The notes below the pieces were generated by a model. It did not search any database. It was not told where the DNA came from and saw nothing but the letters and a program-made list of their open reading frames with translations. A stretch of 64,000 nucleotides of DNA from Shigella phage Sf20: sequence record MF327006. One strand, written 5' to 3'. The stretch's first letter is position 1, and each line of letters begins with the position of its first letter. The position numbers were made by a program, and so were the translations under genes. Shown here one piece after another: positions 3,813-63,044 of this stretch.

Positions 3813-5039
3813 TTAAGCAGGATGCGTTTCACGAATGCATAGAACTCGCTCTAACGTATCTCGGTCCAGTTTATGTAAATCTTTGGAATGATACATGAAA
3901 CCATTGCGAGATTCCATGCAAGTGCAATCACTATATTTTTCTTCCGCTGCCGCGATTGTCTCCAGATCTTTGGCGTACTTGCTGGTAGAATAAACTTCTC
4001 GGTCACGCCACTCTAACCCAGCCTCATTGAATTTAACAATCTCGTCAAATACCCACCATCCAATGTAGATAAATGAAGTTTTGCGCCACGGGATCGGGTG
4101 TACGTAACGAAACATTTTATGAAGAGATTCAACAACTTCCATTGAACATTTTCTGCTTGTACTTGATGCAACTTCTACTGTTTCCTCTTCGATCTGTTGA
4201 TATAGTTTAGCAACACACCAGAATTTGGCTGTGTCATCGTAAGTAGCACTCTCTTTGAACAGATGACCGTCTGGCATGATAGAAAATCCTTCCTGTGCTT
4301 CGCCGACCTCACTACCGATCAGAGTCGGTGAGAGTTGCCCCTCGCGCTGCAAATACCAGTTATATTTGATCGTCAAATTAGGCATACCGCTAGAATCGCC
4401 TACAATGTCCTCTGACACAACATAATTAAGTAAAATCTCATTACCTAGTGCCACGGTCTTTGATTCCGCCACATCCTGATCTACGTTCATTGTTGCCAGC
4501 ATGATTTTAGTCGATGCGCTATCGGCTGAATCTTCCGACTCACCCCACACTTTTACAGTATACACGCCGTTTTTATCTGCTGTAAATTCTTTGATTGTAA
4601 TATTCTGTTTTGTGTCTATAACTTCTTCGCCCTTACTCCAACTATAATGTAGTTCATAGTTGTCTGCTGGAGTCTTCCCACCCGAAAATTTTACTGTTGC
4701 ATGTAATTCTACGTCTTTTTGTGATGATACGTAGAAATGCGGCGGTTCGGTGATATTTACGATTAATTCAGCTTCTTCCATGAGGAAAACGTCAGATTCT
4801 ACTGATGTCGTCGTATCGGTATCTTGTACCGTTACTTTATAGCTACCCGCATTTTCACTTGTTGCGTCTGCTACAGTTAGCGTAGCTGTGCTATTTTCAT
4901 GCGGTTGGTCGTCTTTTGTCCATGTATATGTCAAATTGCTGGGTAATGGTTCGTCACCCGTTACAGTCGCCGTTAAGGTGAAACCATCGCCAGCAAGAAA
5001 ACATCTTTTGTCAGATTTAATTGATACTGTGAAAGCCAT
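3813..5039 (-). CDS. hoc: Hoc-like head outer capsid decoration protein (Ig-like repeats plus capsid-binding C-terminus)
   Basis: C-terminal YVHPIPWRKTSFIYIGWWVFDEIVKF...ESRNGF matches the T4 Hoc capsid-binding region; N-terminal repeated Ig-like modules (TYTW, YSWSKGE). Confidence 0.8.
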   Translation of the reverse strand: MAFTVSIKSDKRCFLAGDGFTLTATVTGDEPLPSNLTYTWTKDDQPHENSTATLTVADATSENAGSYKVTVQDTDTTTSVESDVFLMEEAELIVNITEPPHFYVSSQKDVELHATVKFSGGKTPADNYELHYSWSKGEEVIDTKQNITIKEFTADKNGVYTVKVWGESEDSADSASTKIMLATMNVDQDVAESKTVALGNEILLNYVVSEDIVGDSSGMPNLTIKYNWYLQREGQLSPTLIGSEVGEAQEGFSIMPDGHLFKESATYDDTAKFWCVAKLYQQIEEETVEVASSTSRKCSMEVVESLHKMFRYVHPIPWRKTSFIYIGWWVFDEIVKFNEAGLEWRDREVYSTSKYAKDLETIAAAEEKYSDCTCMESRNGFMYHSKDLHKLDRDTLERVLCIRETHPA

Positions 5040-5208
5040 ATAAAGCCACTCCCATAGAAAATCCGAATTTAATTAATTGAAATAGTTGATTGCCATCAAC
5101 CAGATAACCATTGCGAGATTCCAATACATGAGTATTAGAATAGTGATGCAACGAGGCCGAAATAGTATCGATCTCGTCTGGGTATTTGTTCTGTTTGATG
5201 TAATACAT
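5017..5208 (-). CDS. small ORF with Hoc C-terminus-like ESRNGY motif (possible remnant)
   Basis: YYIKQNKYPDE...ESRNGYL echoes the Hoc/neighbour C-termini; no clear RBS. Confidence 0.25.
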   Translation of the reverse strand: MYYIKQNKYPDEIDTISASLHHYSNTHVLESRNGYLVDGNQLFQLIKFGFSMGVALYGFHSIN

Positions 5209-25336: not shown

Positions 25337-25592
25337 AATATATTCCTCTTAGAAAGGGATGGTCATTTCTTGAGCTTGTACGTTCTCGTTAGGATTAAAC
25401 TTCATCCAGCCGATATTGTCTACCAGCATATGCACATTTTTATCATATCCTACGTGGGTAGTCAATACTGTATGTGCTTTACCTTCAATGATGAGTTCCA
25501 TGTACTTCTGAACTTCGATAGCTTTCATTTTGATTCTCCGTTTGTTGTCTTGATGGGAGTATCTTACTACTCCCTTTAATCATTGTCAACTA

Positions 25593-35507: not shown

Positions 35508-35540
35508 CTTGATACTCCTTAGTTGTTTTGGTATGGGAGT

Positions 35541-35569
35541 ATCTTACTACTCCCGTGATATGCTGTCAA
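35541..35569 (-). promoter_or_regulatory. early promoter overlapping stem-loop GGGAGTAGTAAGATACTCCC
   Basis: TTGACA on - strand with hairpin in the spacer/-10 region; same hairpin recurs at ~25541 and ~62470. Confidence 0.4.
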
Positions 35570-35794
35570 CTGCTTTTTTATGCAACCGCAAACATCAACA
35601 TTTGAACATTCTTGGCTGTCTGGCTTTCAAAGTTCTGACATTCTTTGATAATGTCCTCTACTTTCTCGCCGGAGATCTCCGCGTAAGTTTCGATTGCCAT
35701 TTTCAGTACCGCGTCAAAGTTGTTCATTTGATTCTCCTTAAAGTGTATTTCGTTTCGATGGGGGTATATTACTACCCCCGTTTCATGCTGTCAA

Positions 35795-36013: not shown

Positions 36014-36082
36014 TTTGATTCTCCTTTGTTTCGTTTCGATGGGGGTATATTACTACCCCCGTTATTCAGTGTCAACTACTTT

Positions 36083-55466: not shown

Positions 55467-58406
55467 ATGGCAGATTTAAGCAGAATCCAATTTAAACGTA
55501 CTAGCACTAAAGGCCGTCGACCTGATGCTGGTACGATGAATCCGGGGGAATTGGCAATCAACCTTGCGGATCAATATCTTCTTACTAAAAATGATTCCGG
55601 TGCTATTATCAATTTAAGTTGTCCTCCGGTTTATGACCGCGATGTTACAATGGCAGGTAAGGTTAAAGGTAATAATTATATCTTAAGTAAAACCGCCAAC
55701 TATCTGGAAGATCAGACAGCGAGAGACCTTAACTACTTTGGTGCTTTCCGTACCAATGGTCTTGACGGTTTTCTCGAACTCACGCTAAACGTTCCTCATT
55801 CTTCTGGTGTTCAGCATGGTCGAGGATTTACTTTCCAGTATGGACACACAGGAAACCGTGTAGAAACTTATGGTTATAATAAAGAAGGACAAAAAGCATT
55901 TAGCTATAAAATGTATCATGAAGGTGATAAACCTACCCCATCGGAATTGAACGTTTATAGCAAACAAGAAGTTGACCGTATGTTTGTTAAAACCGTTAAA
56001 CTTGCTACAGTTCCTGTTGATATCGTTGACGGTTATTTTAAATTAGCAACTGCAATGATTCCGCAAAACGGTCGTAGTGTATTTTTCCGTATTCATGGTG
56101 GTAACGGATATAACGTTACCGCATACGATCAAGTTGATATTGTAGAAATTGTTATTCGCAGTGGAAATAATCGTCCTAAAGGTGTTAACGTTATTGCATA
56201 CCGACGAAATACAAACAAATCATTTGATGTTTTGGCTGTTAATACTTCTGGTGATAACTATGATATCTACGTGAAATATCAGCGTTACACTGATAACGTT
56301 ATTGTTGAATTTGGTAAAAGTGTTGATGTTGATCTGGTAGTCCATGACGTTCCCGACTTTGTTGTTGATCGTCCTGCTGGCGATAATGTTATTGGCGGTC
56401 GCGCGGTAACTCTTTTCAACACAGAAAATAAACGTGGTGTGTTGAGTTTTGACGATAACACACAAAATAGTTATGATATTGTTCACTTGAGTAATGATAA
56501 AGGTACTGGTCGGAAATATATTCGTAAATTCCGCAGTAACTATAATGAAATGATCTGGCATGAGACGGTTCAAGGTTCTACCTATCGACTCGCCACGGGT
56601 AGTACCGATGCTCAGGAGATTCTAACCGTTGAATCTGTTAGCTCAATTGCTGGAACTCATAAAGGTAATATTATTTCTGGACGTATGCTGTTAAATGGCG
56701 GTAGTAATGTTATTACCTTGCGGCGTCCTGCTGGTCAATCCAACCATATTGCGTTTCAAGATAATCGTACTGGAGATATTACCCGTCAAGGATGGATCGG
56801 TTATGCCAATGCTGATACTAACATTTTTGAATGGTATAGTGATGTAGGTGGCAGTTCTATTCGTCAACATATTGACGGACAGATCGAACTTGCAACCGGT
56901 AACACAAAACGCGTTTATACTAACGCTCAATTCATCTCAATGAATAGCGACGCCTACCGCATGCTCTACGGTAATTATGGTGCATTCTGGCGTAATGACG
57001 GCGTTAAAGTTTATCTTCTTTCTACTGCCGAAAATGATAAATTGGGCGGGTGGAATGCCTATCGTCCATTCATTTATGATTTAACTTCCGGTAACGTTCA
57101 ATTAGGCGGTGATGGTAACGAAGAAGCATTAACGTTAGAACGTGCTTCTCGTGCCGCTCGATTTAGTAATGACGTTTACATTAAGAAAGGGCTTTTGACT
57201 TTCGACGCTGGTCGTGCTGGATCTCGCGATTATATTCGATTTAATCATTGGGGTGATAGCAATAATGCTCGTGATAACGTTTTGTACATAGAAGATAGTC
57301 AAGGCCGACATTTTAGTACAGAACGTGCGATGGGTACTGGTGCTCTTAAAGCATACTTCTTAGGCGATCTTGAAGTCGGTGGTAAGTTTACTTGGGGTAA
57401 AAATACAGCTACATCTAGCTTTAATATCCGTGCATGGGGTGCTGATGCTCGTAAACAGGTATTAGAATGTGCTGATGAAAGCGGTTGGCATTGGTATACC
57501 CAACGACCGGGCGGTCCTGGTACTGATGCAATTGAATTTTCTATTAACGGTACGGTTAAGCCTAAAGCAATTCATACTGGCGGCAATATCACTATCAACG
57601 GTGCTGATATTGAGTTTAAACGCGCTGGCAATAAGCATTTATGGTTTAGAGATCCAAACGGATTAGAATTGGGTTTGATTTATTGTGATGATGCTGGTGT
57701 TATTCGTGTCCGTGGTGAGAAGTCGACCGAAGTGTGGAAATTCTCGGCAAAACAGATTCATTTAGAAACGGGTACTGCTGGTAACGGTGTTGGTTTAATC
57801 CGTGGTGCAGTTGGTGGTGGTGCGTGGACTCAATGGAGAGACCGTGGTACTGGCTTACAGGTTGACTGCCAACAATCAGAAAACTCAGCACACAACATAT
57901 GGCGAGCGACTCATCAAGGTAAGTACCATCTTGCAGCAATGGGTGTTCATGCATCTGGTGGTAGTGTTGCTAATACCGTTGTTCGCTTACATGTTCATGA
58001 CTCAAACTATGATTTCACTGCTGTTGGTGACTTCACCGCAGGTCGTAACGGTTCGTTTAACGATGTGTACATTCGTTCTGATGCTCGCCTTAAAATCAAC
58101 AAGGAAGAGTATAAAGAGAATGCCACCGATAAAGTTAATCGCTTAACTGTATACACCTATGACAAGGTTAAATCTTTAACCGACCGTACTGTCATTGCTC
58201 ATGAAGTTGGCATTATCGCACAGGATCTTGAGAAAGAATTGCCGGAAGCAGTAACAACCTCGAAGATCGGAGACGGTGATACACCAGAAGAGATCTTAAC
58301 AATTTCTAACTCTGCTGTCAACGCTCTTTTAATTAAGGCGTTTCAGGAAATGAGCGAAGAATTGAAAGCCGTTAAAGCTGAACTAGCGGAACTTAAAAAG
58401 AATTAA
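55467..58406 (+). CDS. 37: long tail fiber distal subunit / receptor-binding protein gp37 with C-terminal intramolecular-chaperone-like domain
   Basis: N-terminus MADLSRIQFKRTSTKGRRPDAG...GELAINL matches T4 gp37; C-terminal ~110 aa begins SDARLK and ends in a coiled coil, resembling peptidase S74 chaperone domains. Confidence 0.8.
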   Translation: MADLSRIQFKRTSTKGRRPDAGTMNPGELAINLADQYLLTKNDSGAIINLSCPPVYDRDVTMAGKVKGNNYILSKTANYLEDQTARDLNYFGAFRTNGLDGFLELTLNVPHSSGVQHGRGFTFQYGHTGNRVETYGYNKEGQKAFSYKMYHEGDKPTPSELNVYSKQEVDRMFVKTVKLATVPVDIVDGYFKLATAMIPQNGRSVFFRIHGGNGYNVTAYDQVDIVEIVIRSGNNRPKGVNVIAYRRNTNKSFDVLAVNTSGDNYDIYVKYQRYTDNVIVEFGKSVDVDLVVHDVPDFVVDRPAGDNVIGGRAVTLFNTENKRGVLSFDDNTQNSYDIVHLSNDKGTGRKYIRKFRSNYNEMIWHETVQGSTYRLATGSTDAQEILTVESVSSIAGTHKGNIISGRMLLNGGSNVITLRRPAGQSNHIAFQDNRTGDITRQGWIGYANADTNIFEWYSDVGGSSIRQHIDGQIELATGNTKRVYTNAQFISMNSDAYRMLYGNYGAFWRNDGVKVYLLSTAENDKLGGWNAYRPFIYDLTSGNVQLGGDGNEEALTLERASRAARFSNDVYIKKGLLTFDAGRAGSRDYIRFNHWGDSNNARDNVLYIEDSQGRHFSTERAMGTGALKAYFLGDLEVGGKFTWGKNTATSSFNIRAWGADARKQVLECADESGWHWYTQRPGGPGTDAIEFSINGTVKPKAIHTGGNITINGADIEFKRAGNKHLWFRDPNGLELGLIYCDDAGVIRVRGEKSTEVWKFSAKQIHLETGTAGNGVGLIRGAVGGGAWTQWRDRGTGLQVDCQQSENSAHNIWRATHQGKYHLAAMGVHASGGSVANTVVRLHVHDSNYDFTAVGDFTAGRNGSFNDVYIRSDARLKINKEEYKENATDKVNRLTVYTYDKVKSLTDRTVIAHEVGIIAQDLEKELPEAVTTSKIGDGDTPEEILTISNSAVNALLIKAFQEMSEELKAVKAELAELKKN

Positions 58407-58721: not shown

Positions 58722-59378
58722 ATGCAAGTTTCTGAAAAAGGGAAAGACTTTGCTATCTCAAATGTCCTGCGCGCTATTTTCACAACTAAAAGCACGGAGT
58801 TGCTCGTACTTCGTGTTTTTGCTGCCGTCGTGTTGTCCATATTGGCATTTGTCGTTTATAGTAAAAACGAGTTATTTGCGCTTTATAAAGAGACTCGTTA
58901 TGAGACTTATGCTCACATTCTCCAGGTAGAGAAAGACCGCAATTTTGATAATGCAGCACAGGAGCAGTTACAGATAGTTCATGTGTCGGCTGATGCCGAT
59001 TTTTCTGCTGTTTTTAGTTTTCGTCCGAAAAACCTAAACTATTTTGTTGATTTGGTGGCATATGAAGGAAAGCTACCGCATACAATCGATGAAAAGAATT
59101 TAGGCGGATTCCCTATCAATAAAACGAGTGAAGAATATCGTAGACATCTTTTAGGTAAATCATATTTTACCGATAAAGATTTCCAGTATATTCCATCAAG
59201 AGAAAAGAAATTAGAGAATATCGATATAGGTTTCATGTATTCTTGTCCTATATTCAATCTCGATAATGTCTATTCTGGTAGTATCGCCATTTCATGGAAG
59301 AATAAACCGGATATTGACATTGAGAATTTAGATACTCTTTGCAATCAATCTGCCAGAATCCTCGGAAGGATTAGATAA
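58722..59378 (+). CDS. t: holin T
   Basis: 218 aa, same length as T4 T; KNELFALYKETRYETYAHILQVEKDR...QLQIVHVSADADFSAVFSFRPKNLNYFVDLVAYEGKLP...YSCPIFNLDN...ARILGR match T4 holin. Confidence 0.9.
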   Translation: MQVSEKGKDFAISNVLRAIFTTKSTELLVLRVFAAVVLSILAFVVYSKNELFALYKETRYETYAHILQVEKDRNFDNAAQEQLQIVHVSADADFSAVFSFRPKNLNYFVDLVAYEGKLPHTIDEKNLGGFPINKTSEEYRRHLLGKSYFTDKDFQYIPSREKKLENIDIGFMYSCPIFNLDNVYSGSIAISWKNKPDIDIENLDTLCNQSARILGRIR

Positions 59379-59384
59379 CTTAAA

Positions 59385-59415
59385 GGGGAAGCCTTTCGGC
59401 CTCCCCTTCTTTTTA
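59385..59415 (+). terminator. rho-independent terminator after t
   Basis: GGGGAAGCC-TTTC-GGCCTCCCC hairpin followed by TTCTTTTTATT. Confidence 0.55.
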
Positions 59416-59661
59416 TTGGCGCATAGAAGCCCCTGAATCACATTTTGACGCTGTATGATGAAAACATGTAGCGTACCAGTCATCGGCTTGTTTGTCTTCG
59501 TCAGAAAACGCGTAATTGCGTTGTATGCCGTTTTCTACTTTGACCAGTGCAATAGCTGTTTCTGGAAGATCAATCAATCGGACAAAATCACCGTCTTCCC
59601 ACTCCACACGGGCAATATCATAGCCCATCTCAAAGTATACAATCGCTTGTTCTAATTTCAT
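59413..59661 (-). CDS. hypothetical protein (82 aa)
   Basis: ORF. Confidence 0.4.
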   Translation of the reverse strand: MKLEQAIVYFEMGYDIARVEWEDGDFVRLIDLPETAIALVKVENGIQRNYAFSDEDKQADDWYATCFHHTASKCDSGASMRQ

Positions 59662-61375: not shown

Positions 61376-61663
61376 TTATTTTCGGTTGTGGTCACGATAT
61401 GTTTTAAAATATCCCTCGTACCACGGTAAAATATCTGGATTTTTACCACTATACAGACCTTTAACCATCATGTCAATAAGGCCATCTGGTGTTTGATAGT
61501 TTCCCGCTTTTATAAGCTCTCTGATTAAAATCTCTCTGTATATGTCTTTCGGATCTTCGTAATCAACTTGTATTGTGGTTGTGGTCTCATTCAATTTGGT
61601 TTCTGGAGTATCTCGGATCGCATCCCACCAATCTTTTGTGATCTTCATGTTATTGAATTGCAT
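61376..61663 (-). CDS. hypothetical protein (95 aa)
   Basis: ORF. Confidence 0.4.
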   Translation of the reverse strand: MQFNNMKITKDWWDAIRDTPETKLNETTTTIQVDYEDPKDIYREILIRELIKAGNYQTPDGLIDMMVKGLYSGKNPDILPWYEGYFKTYRDHNRK

Positions 61664-61674
61664 AATTTAACCTC

Positions 61675-62433
61675 TTACTTGCAAACGTATTGATCTACAT
61701 CAATTGCGCCACCGAATGTAGGATGACGTTTTTCGAATCGAATAGTTCCGTCGTTTGGTTCGAAAACGGAGTATTCATATAGATCTTTCTTGCCAACATT
61801 CTTATAAAACCCGCCTTTAGTCATAACGGTTTCTTGTACGTTTGCTTTGTGTACGTTGTATTCATCAATGTATACAAAATCAACCATCTTCCCATTTTTA
61901 ATGGTTACTTTAAGATCTCCTGGTTGGTTTCCATATTTTGCATACAGTGGGGCTTCTTTAATTTTGGTGGAAATTCCATCTTTCATACTCCACTCATAAC
62001 GAACGGTGCATTGATAGGTAAAAGTTTCGACCTTCGGTTCTTCTACCACTTTTGCTTCCTGTTTCGGTTGTTCTTCTTCAACCTTCGCAGAAGTCTCTGA
62101 ATAGCTTTCTGACGCGGTTTCTTCTTTAGGTAATACATTCATCAAGTTTTGGATTTGAGCGTTATATACAGCCTCCAGTGGCTGAATCTGCCCGATATTG
62201 ATCATTGTATCACGAACAGTTTTATTCCAGTTGCGTTGCTCTTGTTTAAGAGACGGATCAATCTTAACAGCCTTAACATACACCTCATGAAGTTTAGAGT
62301 CCAGTGCGGAGATAGACTCATTAGCACAAATAAACTTCTCTGATTTGGTAGTAGCTTTAGCGCAATCAAAGGACGCAGCGTTAGCACCGAAAGCAGTAGC
62401 AGAAAGAACGATAGCAGCGATAATGTTTTTCAT
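61675..62433 (-). CDS. secreted protein with DUF1311 (LprI-like) N-terminal domain
   Basis: Signal peptide MKNIIAAIVLSATAFGANA; FDCAKATTKSEKFICANESISALDSKLHEVY resembles the DUF1311 C...C...L.Y signature. Confidence 0.5.
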   Translation of the reverse strand: MKNIIAAIVLSATAFGANAASFDCAKATTKSEKFICANESISALDSKLHEVYVKAVKIDPSLKQEQRNWNKTVRDTMINIGQIQPLEAVYNAQIQNLMNVLPKEETASESYSETSAKVEEEQPKQEAKVVEEPKVETFTYQCTVRYEWSMKDGISTKIKEAPLYAKYGNQPGDLKVTIKNGKMVDFVYIDEYNVHKANVQETVMTKGGFYKNVGKKDLYEYSVFEPNDGTIRFEKRHPTFGGAIDVDQYVCK

Positions 62434-62507
62434 AATATATTCCTCAGTGTTTTGTCTTGATGGGAGTATCTTACTACTCCCTTAATCCGGTGTCAACTAC
62501 TTTTAAA

Positions 62508-62768
62508 TTATTTTCGCCATTCACCGGAAACAATAAAGTTTGTAAAGTGAACGTGGTCCGTGATAACGTCATTAAGTACCATATGCGGATATGCTTTAGT
62601 GTAATCACGTTTACGATCAGTCATCCAACCAACGAAAGTCGGTGCAAAGTACGGCACACCGTCAGATGATGCCATATTAAACCATTTATCAGCCATAAAT
62701 GCAGCCGCCCTAAGATTTTTAATTGAAGTAGTGCGACTAATTTCAAAAACTTTATCGGTAAAATTCAT
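62508..62768 (-). CDS. hypothetical protein (86 aa)
   Basis: ORF behind promoter cassette at ~62470-62500. Confidence 0.4.
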   Translation of the reverse strand: MNFTDKVFEISRTTSIKNLRAAAFMADKWFNMASSDGVPYFAPTFVGWMTDRKRDYTKAYPHMVLNDVITDHVHFTNFIVSGEWRK

Positions 62769-63028
62769 TTTAAGCCCCCCGCTCGTGCATTAATACGCAT
62801 TTTCTGCATAGCCATGATCTGGTTTACTGCTTCTTCTTTACGTTCTTGCGTGATAACGTGACCAGATTCCGTAAACTCTCCCGCAACTTCTTCTACGATC
62901 TCGCGAACTTGAGAACGTCCAAAGATGCGGTTTCCTTCGTAGCTCATAAATTCAGTCACTACTTGCTCGATAGATTTCATGTGATTCTCCTTCTTTCGTT
63001 TGGTATGGGAGTATAATACTACTCCCAT
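62765..63028 (-). CDS. hypothetical protein (87 aa)
   Basis: ORF behind promoter cassette at ~63015-63045. Confidence 0.4.
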   Translation of the reverse strand: MGVVLYSHTKRKKENHMKSIEQVVTEFMSYEGNRIFGRSQVREIVEEVAGEFTESGHVITQERKEEAVNQIMAMQKMRINARAGGLK

Positions 63029-63044
63029 TTCTTTACGTCAACAA

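Follow-up and report, generated by a model that had tools for sequence, protein, structure and literature searches.

An exported LprI-domain early protein with an exchangeable C-terminal domain in an RB49-like phage

Shigella phage Sf20 (sequence record MF327006), of which we analysed a stretch of 64,000 nucleotides (hereafter the window), carries on its minus strand at positions 61675 to 62433 an early gene for a 252-amino-acid protein, here called the LprI gene. An earlier reading of the same DNA, the first-pass annotation, had described the product as a secreted DUF1311 (LprI-like) protein; what it overlooked is the cassette nature of the gene, in which a near-invariant N-terminal module that is common with temperate Escherichia coli prophages is joined to a second domain that exists as many old alleles. 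Sequence features and structure models make it very probable that the protein is a Sec-exported, soluble non-lipoprotein in three parts: a helical LprI module, then a disordered linker rich in acidic residues and lysine, and finally a beta-barrel-like domain of roughly 115 residues. Tentatively, and with a probability of only about 0.38, we propose that it is a periplasmic binder or inhibitor of incoming peptidoglycan-degrading enzymes, with a role in exclusion or protection analogous to that of T4 Spackle. The parts of the gene are as follows:

61675..62433, minus strand: coding sequence, 252 amino acids plus stop; homologue of RB49 open reading frame (ORF) 262 (RB49p262, UniProt Q7Y3G7)
62377..62433, minus strand: predicted signal peptide, residues 1-19 (MKNIIAAIVLSATAFGANA, with A as the first residue after the cut), signal peptidase I (SPase I) type, no lipobox; from a reading of the sequence
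62125..62376, minus strand: LprI/DUF1311 helical module, residues 20-103, with invariant Cys24 and Cys36; from Pfam PF07007 and AlphaFold
62032..62124, minus strand: Glu/Lys/Pro-rich disordered linker, residues 104-134, with a recombination breakpoint near its 3' end at about 62056
61678..62031, minus strand: C-terminal all-beta, barrel-like orphan domain (C-domain), residues 135-252, RB49-class allele; from a domain model

At the nucleotide level, the region is 96-99% identical to RB49-like T4-type coliphages (genus Krischvirus), and the flanking DNA is 95-100% identical among RB49, Phi1, JSE, and a metagenomic Krischvirus. Within the LprI gene, nucleotide identity collapses at about position 62056, where the linker ends, and recovers only at about 61392, delimiting a block that extends into the downstream ORF261:

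61392..62056, no strand assigned: divergent block comprising the linker end, the C-domain, and the downstream ORF261; from sliding nucleotide-identity scans

Protein comparisons tell the same story. Across the 16 homologues compared, identity over residues 1-103 is 88-100%, or 95-100% if a single outlier is set aside, while the C-domains fall into at least nine classes that share 15-47% identity with one another. When the N-terminal module of prophages is compared with that of Krischviruses, the proportion of synonymous differences (pS) is 0.06-0.20, no larger than within Krischviruses, and the proportion of nonsynonymous differences (pN) is 0.003-0.036. For the C-domain, the ratio of nonsynonymous to synonymous divergence (dN/dS) is 0.12-0.26 within a class, and synonymous divergence (dS) is saturated between classes; on these figures, gradual positive selection in the C-domain was considered and rejected. 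The combination of constraint within classes, saturated dS between them, and low pS and pN in the N-terminal module thus argues for cassette exchange, not hypermutation. By these comparisons, each C-domain lineage is old and functionally constrained, and these lineages have been recombined repeatedly onto one young or homogenised module for export and LprI function that circulates among virulent and temperate coliphages.

The temperate side of this exchange is visible in bacterial chromosomes. The first ~380-410 nucleotides of the gene are found at 94-96% nucleotide identity in 26 of 5426 complete E. coli genomes, with similarity that begins exactly at the ATG and ends in the linker. In every copy for which context was examined, the gene lies at a prophage edge adjoining hicAB, and this single hicAB-side site holds at least three C-domain classes. 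For instance, the E. coli loci L002 (8085-9408), L003, L007, L008, and L016 each place an LprI-family gene at the very edge of the prophage, beside hicAB. In some strains hicB is annotated as truncated, and in others gene calls are full length (116 amino acids); hicB may be the attachment site of the LprI-carrying prophage.

The architecture also extends to three other phage groups, whose members display a signal peptide, an AASFDC...IC LprI module, a linker, and a C-domain of ~100 amino acids with two cysteines. These are a 252-amino-acid member in Klebsiella phage Marfa (gp026, between genes 61 and 56), gp061 of the T4-like Aeromonas phage CC2, and gp35 of the lambdoid phage ev099, which adjoins xis/int; each passes the Pfam threshold for the LprI family. 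All of the closest relatives of the N-terminal module with context checked are phage-borne and lie in accessory or early regions, including one in a lambdoid pL operon beside kil, cIII, and abc2 and another in an SSU5-like element, as well as those at the hicB-side prophage edge and in the T4-like phages of Klebsiella and Aeromonas. From sequence and placement, this looks like a phage-specific LprI clade that occupies early or accessory regions.

Both features that the first-pass annotation had ascribed to the N-terminal half, a cleavable signal peptide and a DUF1311-type module, are borne out. In a heuristic reading, the signal peptide is of the classical SPase I type: Lys2 is followed by a hydrophobic core at residues 4-13 with a mean Kyte-Doolittle value of 2.54 (2.66 for OmpA), and A-N-A at positions -3 to -1 predicts cleavage after residue 19, with alanine as the next residue. 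No lipobox is present, as the motif [LVI][ASTVI][GAS]C is absent from the first 40 residues, and residues 1-20 are disordered in the AlphaFold model, with a predicted local distance difference test score (pLDDT) of about 30. Behind the signal peptide, the motif CAKATTKSEKFICANESISALDSKLHEVY occupies residues 24-52 of the 252. In the profile search, which the first-pass annotation had named as one part of its refuting test, Pfam PF07007 (LprI, formerly DUF1311) matches residues 24-76 with an E value of 2.4e-5 and 25.1 bits, above the curated gathering threshold of 22, although the match to the phage protein spans only positions 1-71 of the 106 in the profile. The same cut-off is passed in 7/7 relatives tested, drawn from four phage lineages. 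Moreover, a search with a profile of the N-terminal module recovered 172 proteins, and most of those listed carry a precomputed PF07007 match.

Neither Cys24 nor Cys36 varies among 16 family members or between four phage lineages, and conserved cysteines have been noted for the LprI family (PMC7933661). AlphaFold predicts helices at residues 30-37, 39-58, 62-80, and 83-98, with a pLDDT of 70-80 for the N-terminal model. Searches of PDB sequences with the whole protein, the C-domain profile, and the N-terminal profile returned nothing significant; the N-terminal profile found only 6AR7, with a nonsignificant E value of 0.078.

The linker is predicted to be disordered, with pLDDT below 50 at residues 104-131, and it leads into the more confidently modelled part of the protein. 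Residues 135-251 are predicted to form an all-beta meander or barrel, with a pLDDT of about 90 in the AlphaFold model and, for a model of the domain alone, a pLDDT of 88 and a predicted template modelling (TM) score of 0.82. Cys142 in the first strand and Cys251 in the last are invariant in every allele among the 16 homologues, and we infer from the model that they form a disulfide staple. The four cysteines thus make two invariant pairs, one per domain, as expected for an oxidising compartment, and the mature protein most likely contains two disulfide bonds.

The first-pass annotation had called the second domain one of unknown fold, and it is indeed without a recognisable family: it has no Pfam, NCBIfam, or PADLOC match, and a phmmer search against 1.84 billion representative proteins recovered only its own family plus two repeat-protein artefacts. 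A Foldseek search of the PDB gave no significant neighbour, as all matches had E>0.01 and TM<0.5, and within these limits the weak likenesses are to generic small barrels (FABP, NHBA, TbpB, fHbp, Cap15, and calycins). Among predicted viral structures, the only neighbours are the RB49 orthologue Q7Y3G7 and a few small uncharacterised phage proteins (E values of 1e-4 to 1e-3, TM of 0.59-0.67), one of which, from Erwinia phage Kwan, is annotated as a lipoprotein. MliC (PF09864) or PliC was tried as an identity for the C-domain and rejected; the MliC hidden Markov model (HMM) had no match at E<=10 in the whole protein or in nine C-domain alleles.

The setting of the gene is that of early transcription, in agreement with the earlier description of a phage-encoded, 252-amino-acid early protein. 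It lies in the leftward early cluster that runs from the holin gene t to the topoisomerase gene 52, and directly upstream stands one of the early promoter/stem-loop (PeSL) cassettes, which were described in RB49 and phi1 as strong and sigma-70-type (PMC2839356):

62462..62496, minus strand: PeSL cassette, with a sigma-70-like early promoter and a stem-loop; from a promoter scan and a motif count
62441..62445, minus strand: Shine-Dalgarno sequence GAGGA, 7 nucleotides 5' of the ATG; read in the sequence

The promoter scored 10 of 12 matches in the scan. Its -35 element is TTGACA at 62496-62491, and its -10 element, TAAGAT at 62473-62468, overlaps the stem-loop GGGAGTA-GTAAGA-TACTCCC, so that the exact motif at 62462-62496 reads TTGACA, 10 nucleotides, and then GGGAGTAGTAAGATACTCCC. 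The window holds six minus-strand copies of the motif, against 0.02 expected by chance. With a PeSL directly upstream and a position in a variable region, the LprI gene belongs with the PeSL-flanked early genes in the hyperplastic regions of RB49-type phages. The coding sequence also matches phrog_14799 over its full length (E=6.6e-156 in a PHROG scan), and the full-length gene is found in at least 56 phage records. Because it is conserved in these records and under purifying selection, 61675..62433 is, on sequence grounds, a genuine early gene and not a chance ORF. Its surroundings are not those of a type VI secretion system (T6SS) or effector island: the neighbours are small phage ORFs of unassigned function, with no effector among them.

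Other elements of the cluster are variable too. The PeSL copies, all on the minus strand, lie at 25555-25589, 35535-35569, 35760-35794, 36041-36075, 62462-62496, and 63007-63041 and read TTGAC-N10-GGGAGTAGTAAGATACTCCC or near variants; PeSLs mark the hyperplastic regions described by Arbiol et al. in 2010 (PMC2839356). A small-ORF cassette at ~62500-62870, just on the 5' side of the LprI gene, differs among the window, RB49, Phi1, and JSE and is flanked by PeSLs, consistent with PeSL-mediated shuffling. Judged by length, position, and nucleotide-identity scans, the window ORF at 62508-62768 (86 amino acids, phrog_19692) appears to be the counterpart of phi1 ORFan263.1, and ORF263 of RB49 and phi1 is apparently absent from the window. 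An 82-amino-acid early ORF adjoining the holin gene (59413-59661, minus strand) matches the Pfam family Tad2-like (Thoeris anti-defence 2) with E=3.4e-6 and 27.9 bits against a cut-off of 25; the match is precomputed as 'weak' in two metagenomic Krischvirus loci. We regard this ORF as a candidate anti-Thoeris gene within the early cluster of the LprI gene.

What might such a protein do? In the mechanism that we propose, it would be exported and act in the periplasm of the infected cell on peptidoglycan-degrading enzymes that arrive from outside. The prime candidate target would be the tail-spike lysozyme (gp5 type) of superinfecting phages, with lysozyme-like bacteriocins or T6SS effectors as alternatives, and the infected cell would thereby exclude superinfecting phages or resist lysis from without, in functional analogy to T4 Spackle. 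The near-invariant LprI module would serve as a conserved inhibitor or anchor on a conserved muramidase-type target, while the cassette-like C-domain would provide an exchangeable second binding module with a second, variable specificity.

Several observations are consistent with this proposal. Sec-exported single-domain DUF1311 proteins adjoin T6SS effectors of the lysozyme or lytic-transglycosylase type and are predicted to be immunity proteins (PMC9796082, PMC8867033, PMC12135965). Etsi4, one of these DUF1311 proteins, counteracts the toxicity of Etse4 in the E. coli periplasm (PMC12981562), and T4 Spackle, which is early, periplasmic, and helical, inhibits the gp5 lysozyme (PMC7677548). 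RB49 gp5 has a Phage_lysozyme domain, and gp5 is 95.7-100% identical at the nucleotide level in 59/59 Krischvirus records, whatever the C-domain allele, a conservation that matches the invariance of the LprI module. No Spackle homologue was found by tblastn in the window or in two stretches of RB49 (1-98 kb and 151-164 kb), with a T4 Sp query validated only by its N-terminal match to Marfa Sp, nor by a PHROG scan of the region between genes 61 and 41; likewise, no sp or imm gene is annotated in RB49. The annotated endolysin of RB49 (RB49p102, at 4719-5108 of locus L013, outside the window) is a Peptidase_M15_4 protein (E=4.4e-12), not a T4-type lysozyme. As this endolysin is a peptidase of the M15 type and not a muramidase, an early lysozyme inhibitor need not hinder the phage's own lysis. 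Lastly, the pattern of numerous ancient C-domain alleles joined to a single homogenised N-terminal module is reminiscent of specificity determinants in conflict systems.

A number of results weigh against the proposal. For Mycobacterium tuberculosis LprI, inhibition of lysozyme is attributed to the MliC domain and not to DUF1311, and the Salmonella periplasmic LprI-domain protein ScwA gave no lysozyme protection (PMC7933661). No MliC/PliC fold is among the top 50 Foldseek PDB matches of the C-domain. The N-terminal model has a pLDDT of only 70-80, and neither Foldseek nor the search of PDB sequences recovered a solved DUF1311 structure. Klebsiella phage Marfa has genes for Spackle and for a two-domain protein of the LprI type, which means that one does not simply stand in for the other. 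Members of the family are also found in lambdoid phages, which are not known to have a gp5-type tail lysozyme. Finally, the C-domain class does not covary with gp5, gp37, the holin, or ORF261.

The comparison with gp37 and t covered five Krischvirus loci. The holin T is 97-100% identical where C-domains share only 17-38% identity, and gp37 is mosaic independently of the C-domain class. Gene 37 of the window (55467-58406, plus strand), which encodes the distal long tail fibre, is part of a strongly mosaic set among Krischviruses, with identity of 0.5-0.99 per 150 nucleotides; it is Phi1-like in some segments and RB49-like in others, a host-range shuffling that proceeds independently of the LprI allele. 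The fourth locus lies just downstream of the LprI gene:

61376-61663, minus strand: ORF261 homologue, 95 amino acids, phrog_15915

ORF261 has no Pfam or PADLOC match. Its types, of which there are at least two, have diverged to about 49% identity and keep a common core, LIxELIxAGNYQTPxGLIDxMV. It lacks a signal peptide and is predicted to be cytoplasmic. Locus L014 combines a P0014-class C-domain, which is 30% identical to that of RB49, with an RB49-type ORF261 (93% identical). In the reverse direction, Phi1 and JSE have C-domains that are 21% identical and ORF261 copies that are close (nucleotide identity of 0.54-0.87, against 0.38-0.80 between the window and Phi1, with the alignment in agreement). 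ORF261 is absent beside the prophage copies. It was therefore rejected as a cognate partner of the C-domain, since the types do not covary and prophages do without it.

These data bear on the other explanations that we weighed. It is rather unlikely, in our estimate, that the protein works in the manner of ScwA, with the LprI module binding a lytic transglycosylase of the host, or another of its enzymes that remodel peptidoglycan, such as MltD, so that the sacculus is stabilised or retuned; the effects would then fall on the burst, the timing of lysis, or the tolerance of the swollen infected cell, and not on the blocking of foreign enzymes. ScwA is itself a soluble periplasmic LprI-domain protein with disulfides that raises MltD levels and confers no lysozyme resistance (PMC7933661), and if the target were a conserved host protein, it would be clear why the LprI module is so extremely conserved among unrelated phages that infect the same host. 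Nevertheless, the many ancient C-domain alleles would be left unexplained, the LprI domain of ScwA is C-terminal in a different architecture, and Klebsiella and Aeromonas phages have relatives with a diverged LprI module. We think it less probable still that the barrel masks an envelope receptor. Here it would bind an outer-membrane protein, lipopolysaccharide, or a lipoprotein, from the periplasm or after release, and would block adsorption or DNA entry of competitors, like T5 Llp or Cor, with the LprI module as a scaffold. The sole structural neighbours of the C-domain are small phage beta-domain proteins (with the Kwan protein annotated as a lipoprotein), its weak PDB likenesses include surface-lipoprotein barrels (NHBA, TbpB, and fHbp) and calycins, and allelic diversity is typical of receptor-related functions. 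However, the protein has no lipobox or membrane anchor, its C-domain class is independent of the mosaic tail-fibre tip of gp37 in the five loci, and every one of those PDB matches falls short of significance.

An antiholin-like factor that binds the periplasmic domain of holin T, as RI does, would set lysis timing, which the first-pass annotation had listed beside superinfection exclusion and envelope defence. The protein is predicted to be periplasmic, it is early, and its gene and the holin gene t (58722-59378) are about 2.3 kb apart, but a holin that hardly varies among phages with such different C-domains, the presence of an rI gene of its own in RB49, and the lack of a T-type holin gene in the examined stretches around the lambdoid, SSU5-like, and prophage-edge homologues make this very improbable. 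The sequence evidence favours exclusion or envelope defence and speaks against holin-directed lysis timing, since the C-domain is exchanged in phages whose holin stays 99% conserved. Least credible of all is a polymorphic toxin/immunity-like pair made of the variable C-domain and the variable ORF261. The divergent block of Krischviruses does span both, but the data contradict the pairing: the type of ORF261 does not follow the C-domain class in L014 or in Phi1 and JSE, the prophage copies have no ORF261, and ORF261 has no signal peptide.

Our proposal of a periplasmic inhibitor can be pressed further, into a form that we hold to be unlikely as a whole. The gene might be a polymorphic, cassette-swapping exclusion determinant, acting between phages or between phage and bacterial weapon and common to virulent T4-type and temperate coliphages, in which a single homogenised module for export and LprI function would bear any one of many ancient barrels, and each barrel would neutralise a different competitor component entering the periplasm. 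If so, superinfection exclusion would have a typing system on a par with polymorphic immunity proteins, and the place left empty in Krischviruses by Imm and Spackle would be taken.

Phages of the RB49 type are in wide use, both in therapy and as models, and the RB49-type sequence examined contained no exclusion gene recognisable as T4 Imm or Spackle. If the protein is a periplasmic shield, it would represent a second, unrelated solution to the blocking of incoming tail lysozymes and would give the widespread but biochemically vague DUF1311 domain its first phage function. If it only tunes host wall enzymes, phage accessory genes would gain a modest further member. The invariant N-terminal module with many ancient, swappable C-domains, common to virulent and temperate phages of one host, is a clear natural example of domain-level cassette exchange, and the C-domain classes offer a ready-made allele series for work on specificity. 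The domain call itself is not new: entries in public databases for this protein and for its relatives in E. coli already carry an LprI-like label, and a hint of DUF1311 in the RB49 ORF (E=0.2) dates from 2006 (PMC1524935). In the literature searched, though, we found no description of the two-domain, phage-specific architecture with an orphan barrel, of its polymorphic cassettes, or of an N-terminal module common to virulent and temperate coliphages, and these appear to be undescribed.

Among known systems, the founder of PF07007, M. tuberculosis LprI (Rv1541c), resembles the phage protein in being exported and in having an N-terminal DUF1311/LprI domain followed by a second domain. It is, however, a lipoprotein, and the second domain is MliC (PF09864), which is credited with the inhibition of lysozyme (PMC7933661), whereas the phage protein has no lipobox and a C-domain that is not MliC. 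Salmonella ScwA is likewise a soluble periplasmic LprI-domain protein, whose disulfides matter for stability, but its LprI domain is C-terminal, the protein is otherwise helical and chromosomally encoded, and it regulates MltD levels (PMC7933661). The T6SS DUF1311 immunities, such as EHEC Etsi4, Salmonella Dublin SED_RS06230, and the Pantoea orphans, share with the phage protein the Pfam domain, a Sec signal peptide, and a periplasmic location, which is a prediction for the phage protein. They neutralise, or are predicted to neutralise, effectors that target the cell wall (PMC12981562, PMC9796082, PMC8867033, PMC12135965). In contrast to the phage protein, with its extra variable domain and no effector neighbour, they are single-domain proteins of about 120-180 amino acids encoded beside their effector in T6SS loci.

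Closer at hand, the phrog_4675 proteins (ev099 gp35, Marfa gp026, and CC2 gp061) have the same architecture and early or accessory placement as the Sf20 protein, but their N-terminal modules are only 27-44% identical to its own, and their C-domains are unrelated to the RB49-class barrel. A functional analogue, if our proposal is right, would be T4 Spackle (gp61.3, phrog_1586). Like the phage LprI protein, Spackle is early, Sec-exported, and soluble in the periplasm (again a prediction for the LprI protein), and it has a disulfide-stabilised helical module; the role that we propose, inhibition of an incoming tail lysozyme, would be the same. The two share no sequence relationship, as evidenced by a PHROG scan in which the LprI protein matches phrog_14799, 4675, and 33858, but not 1586, while Marfa Spackle, the positive control, matches phrog_1586 with E=1.5e-25. 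Their architectures differ as well: Spackle consists of one domain and has no polymorphic cassette, whereas the phage LprI protein joins to its helical module a second, variable domain.

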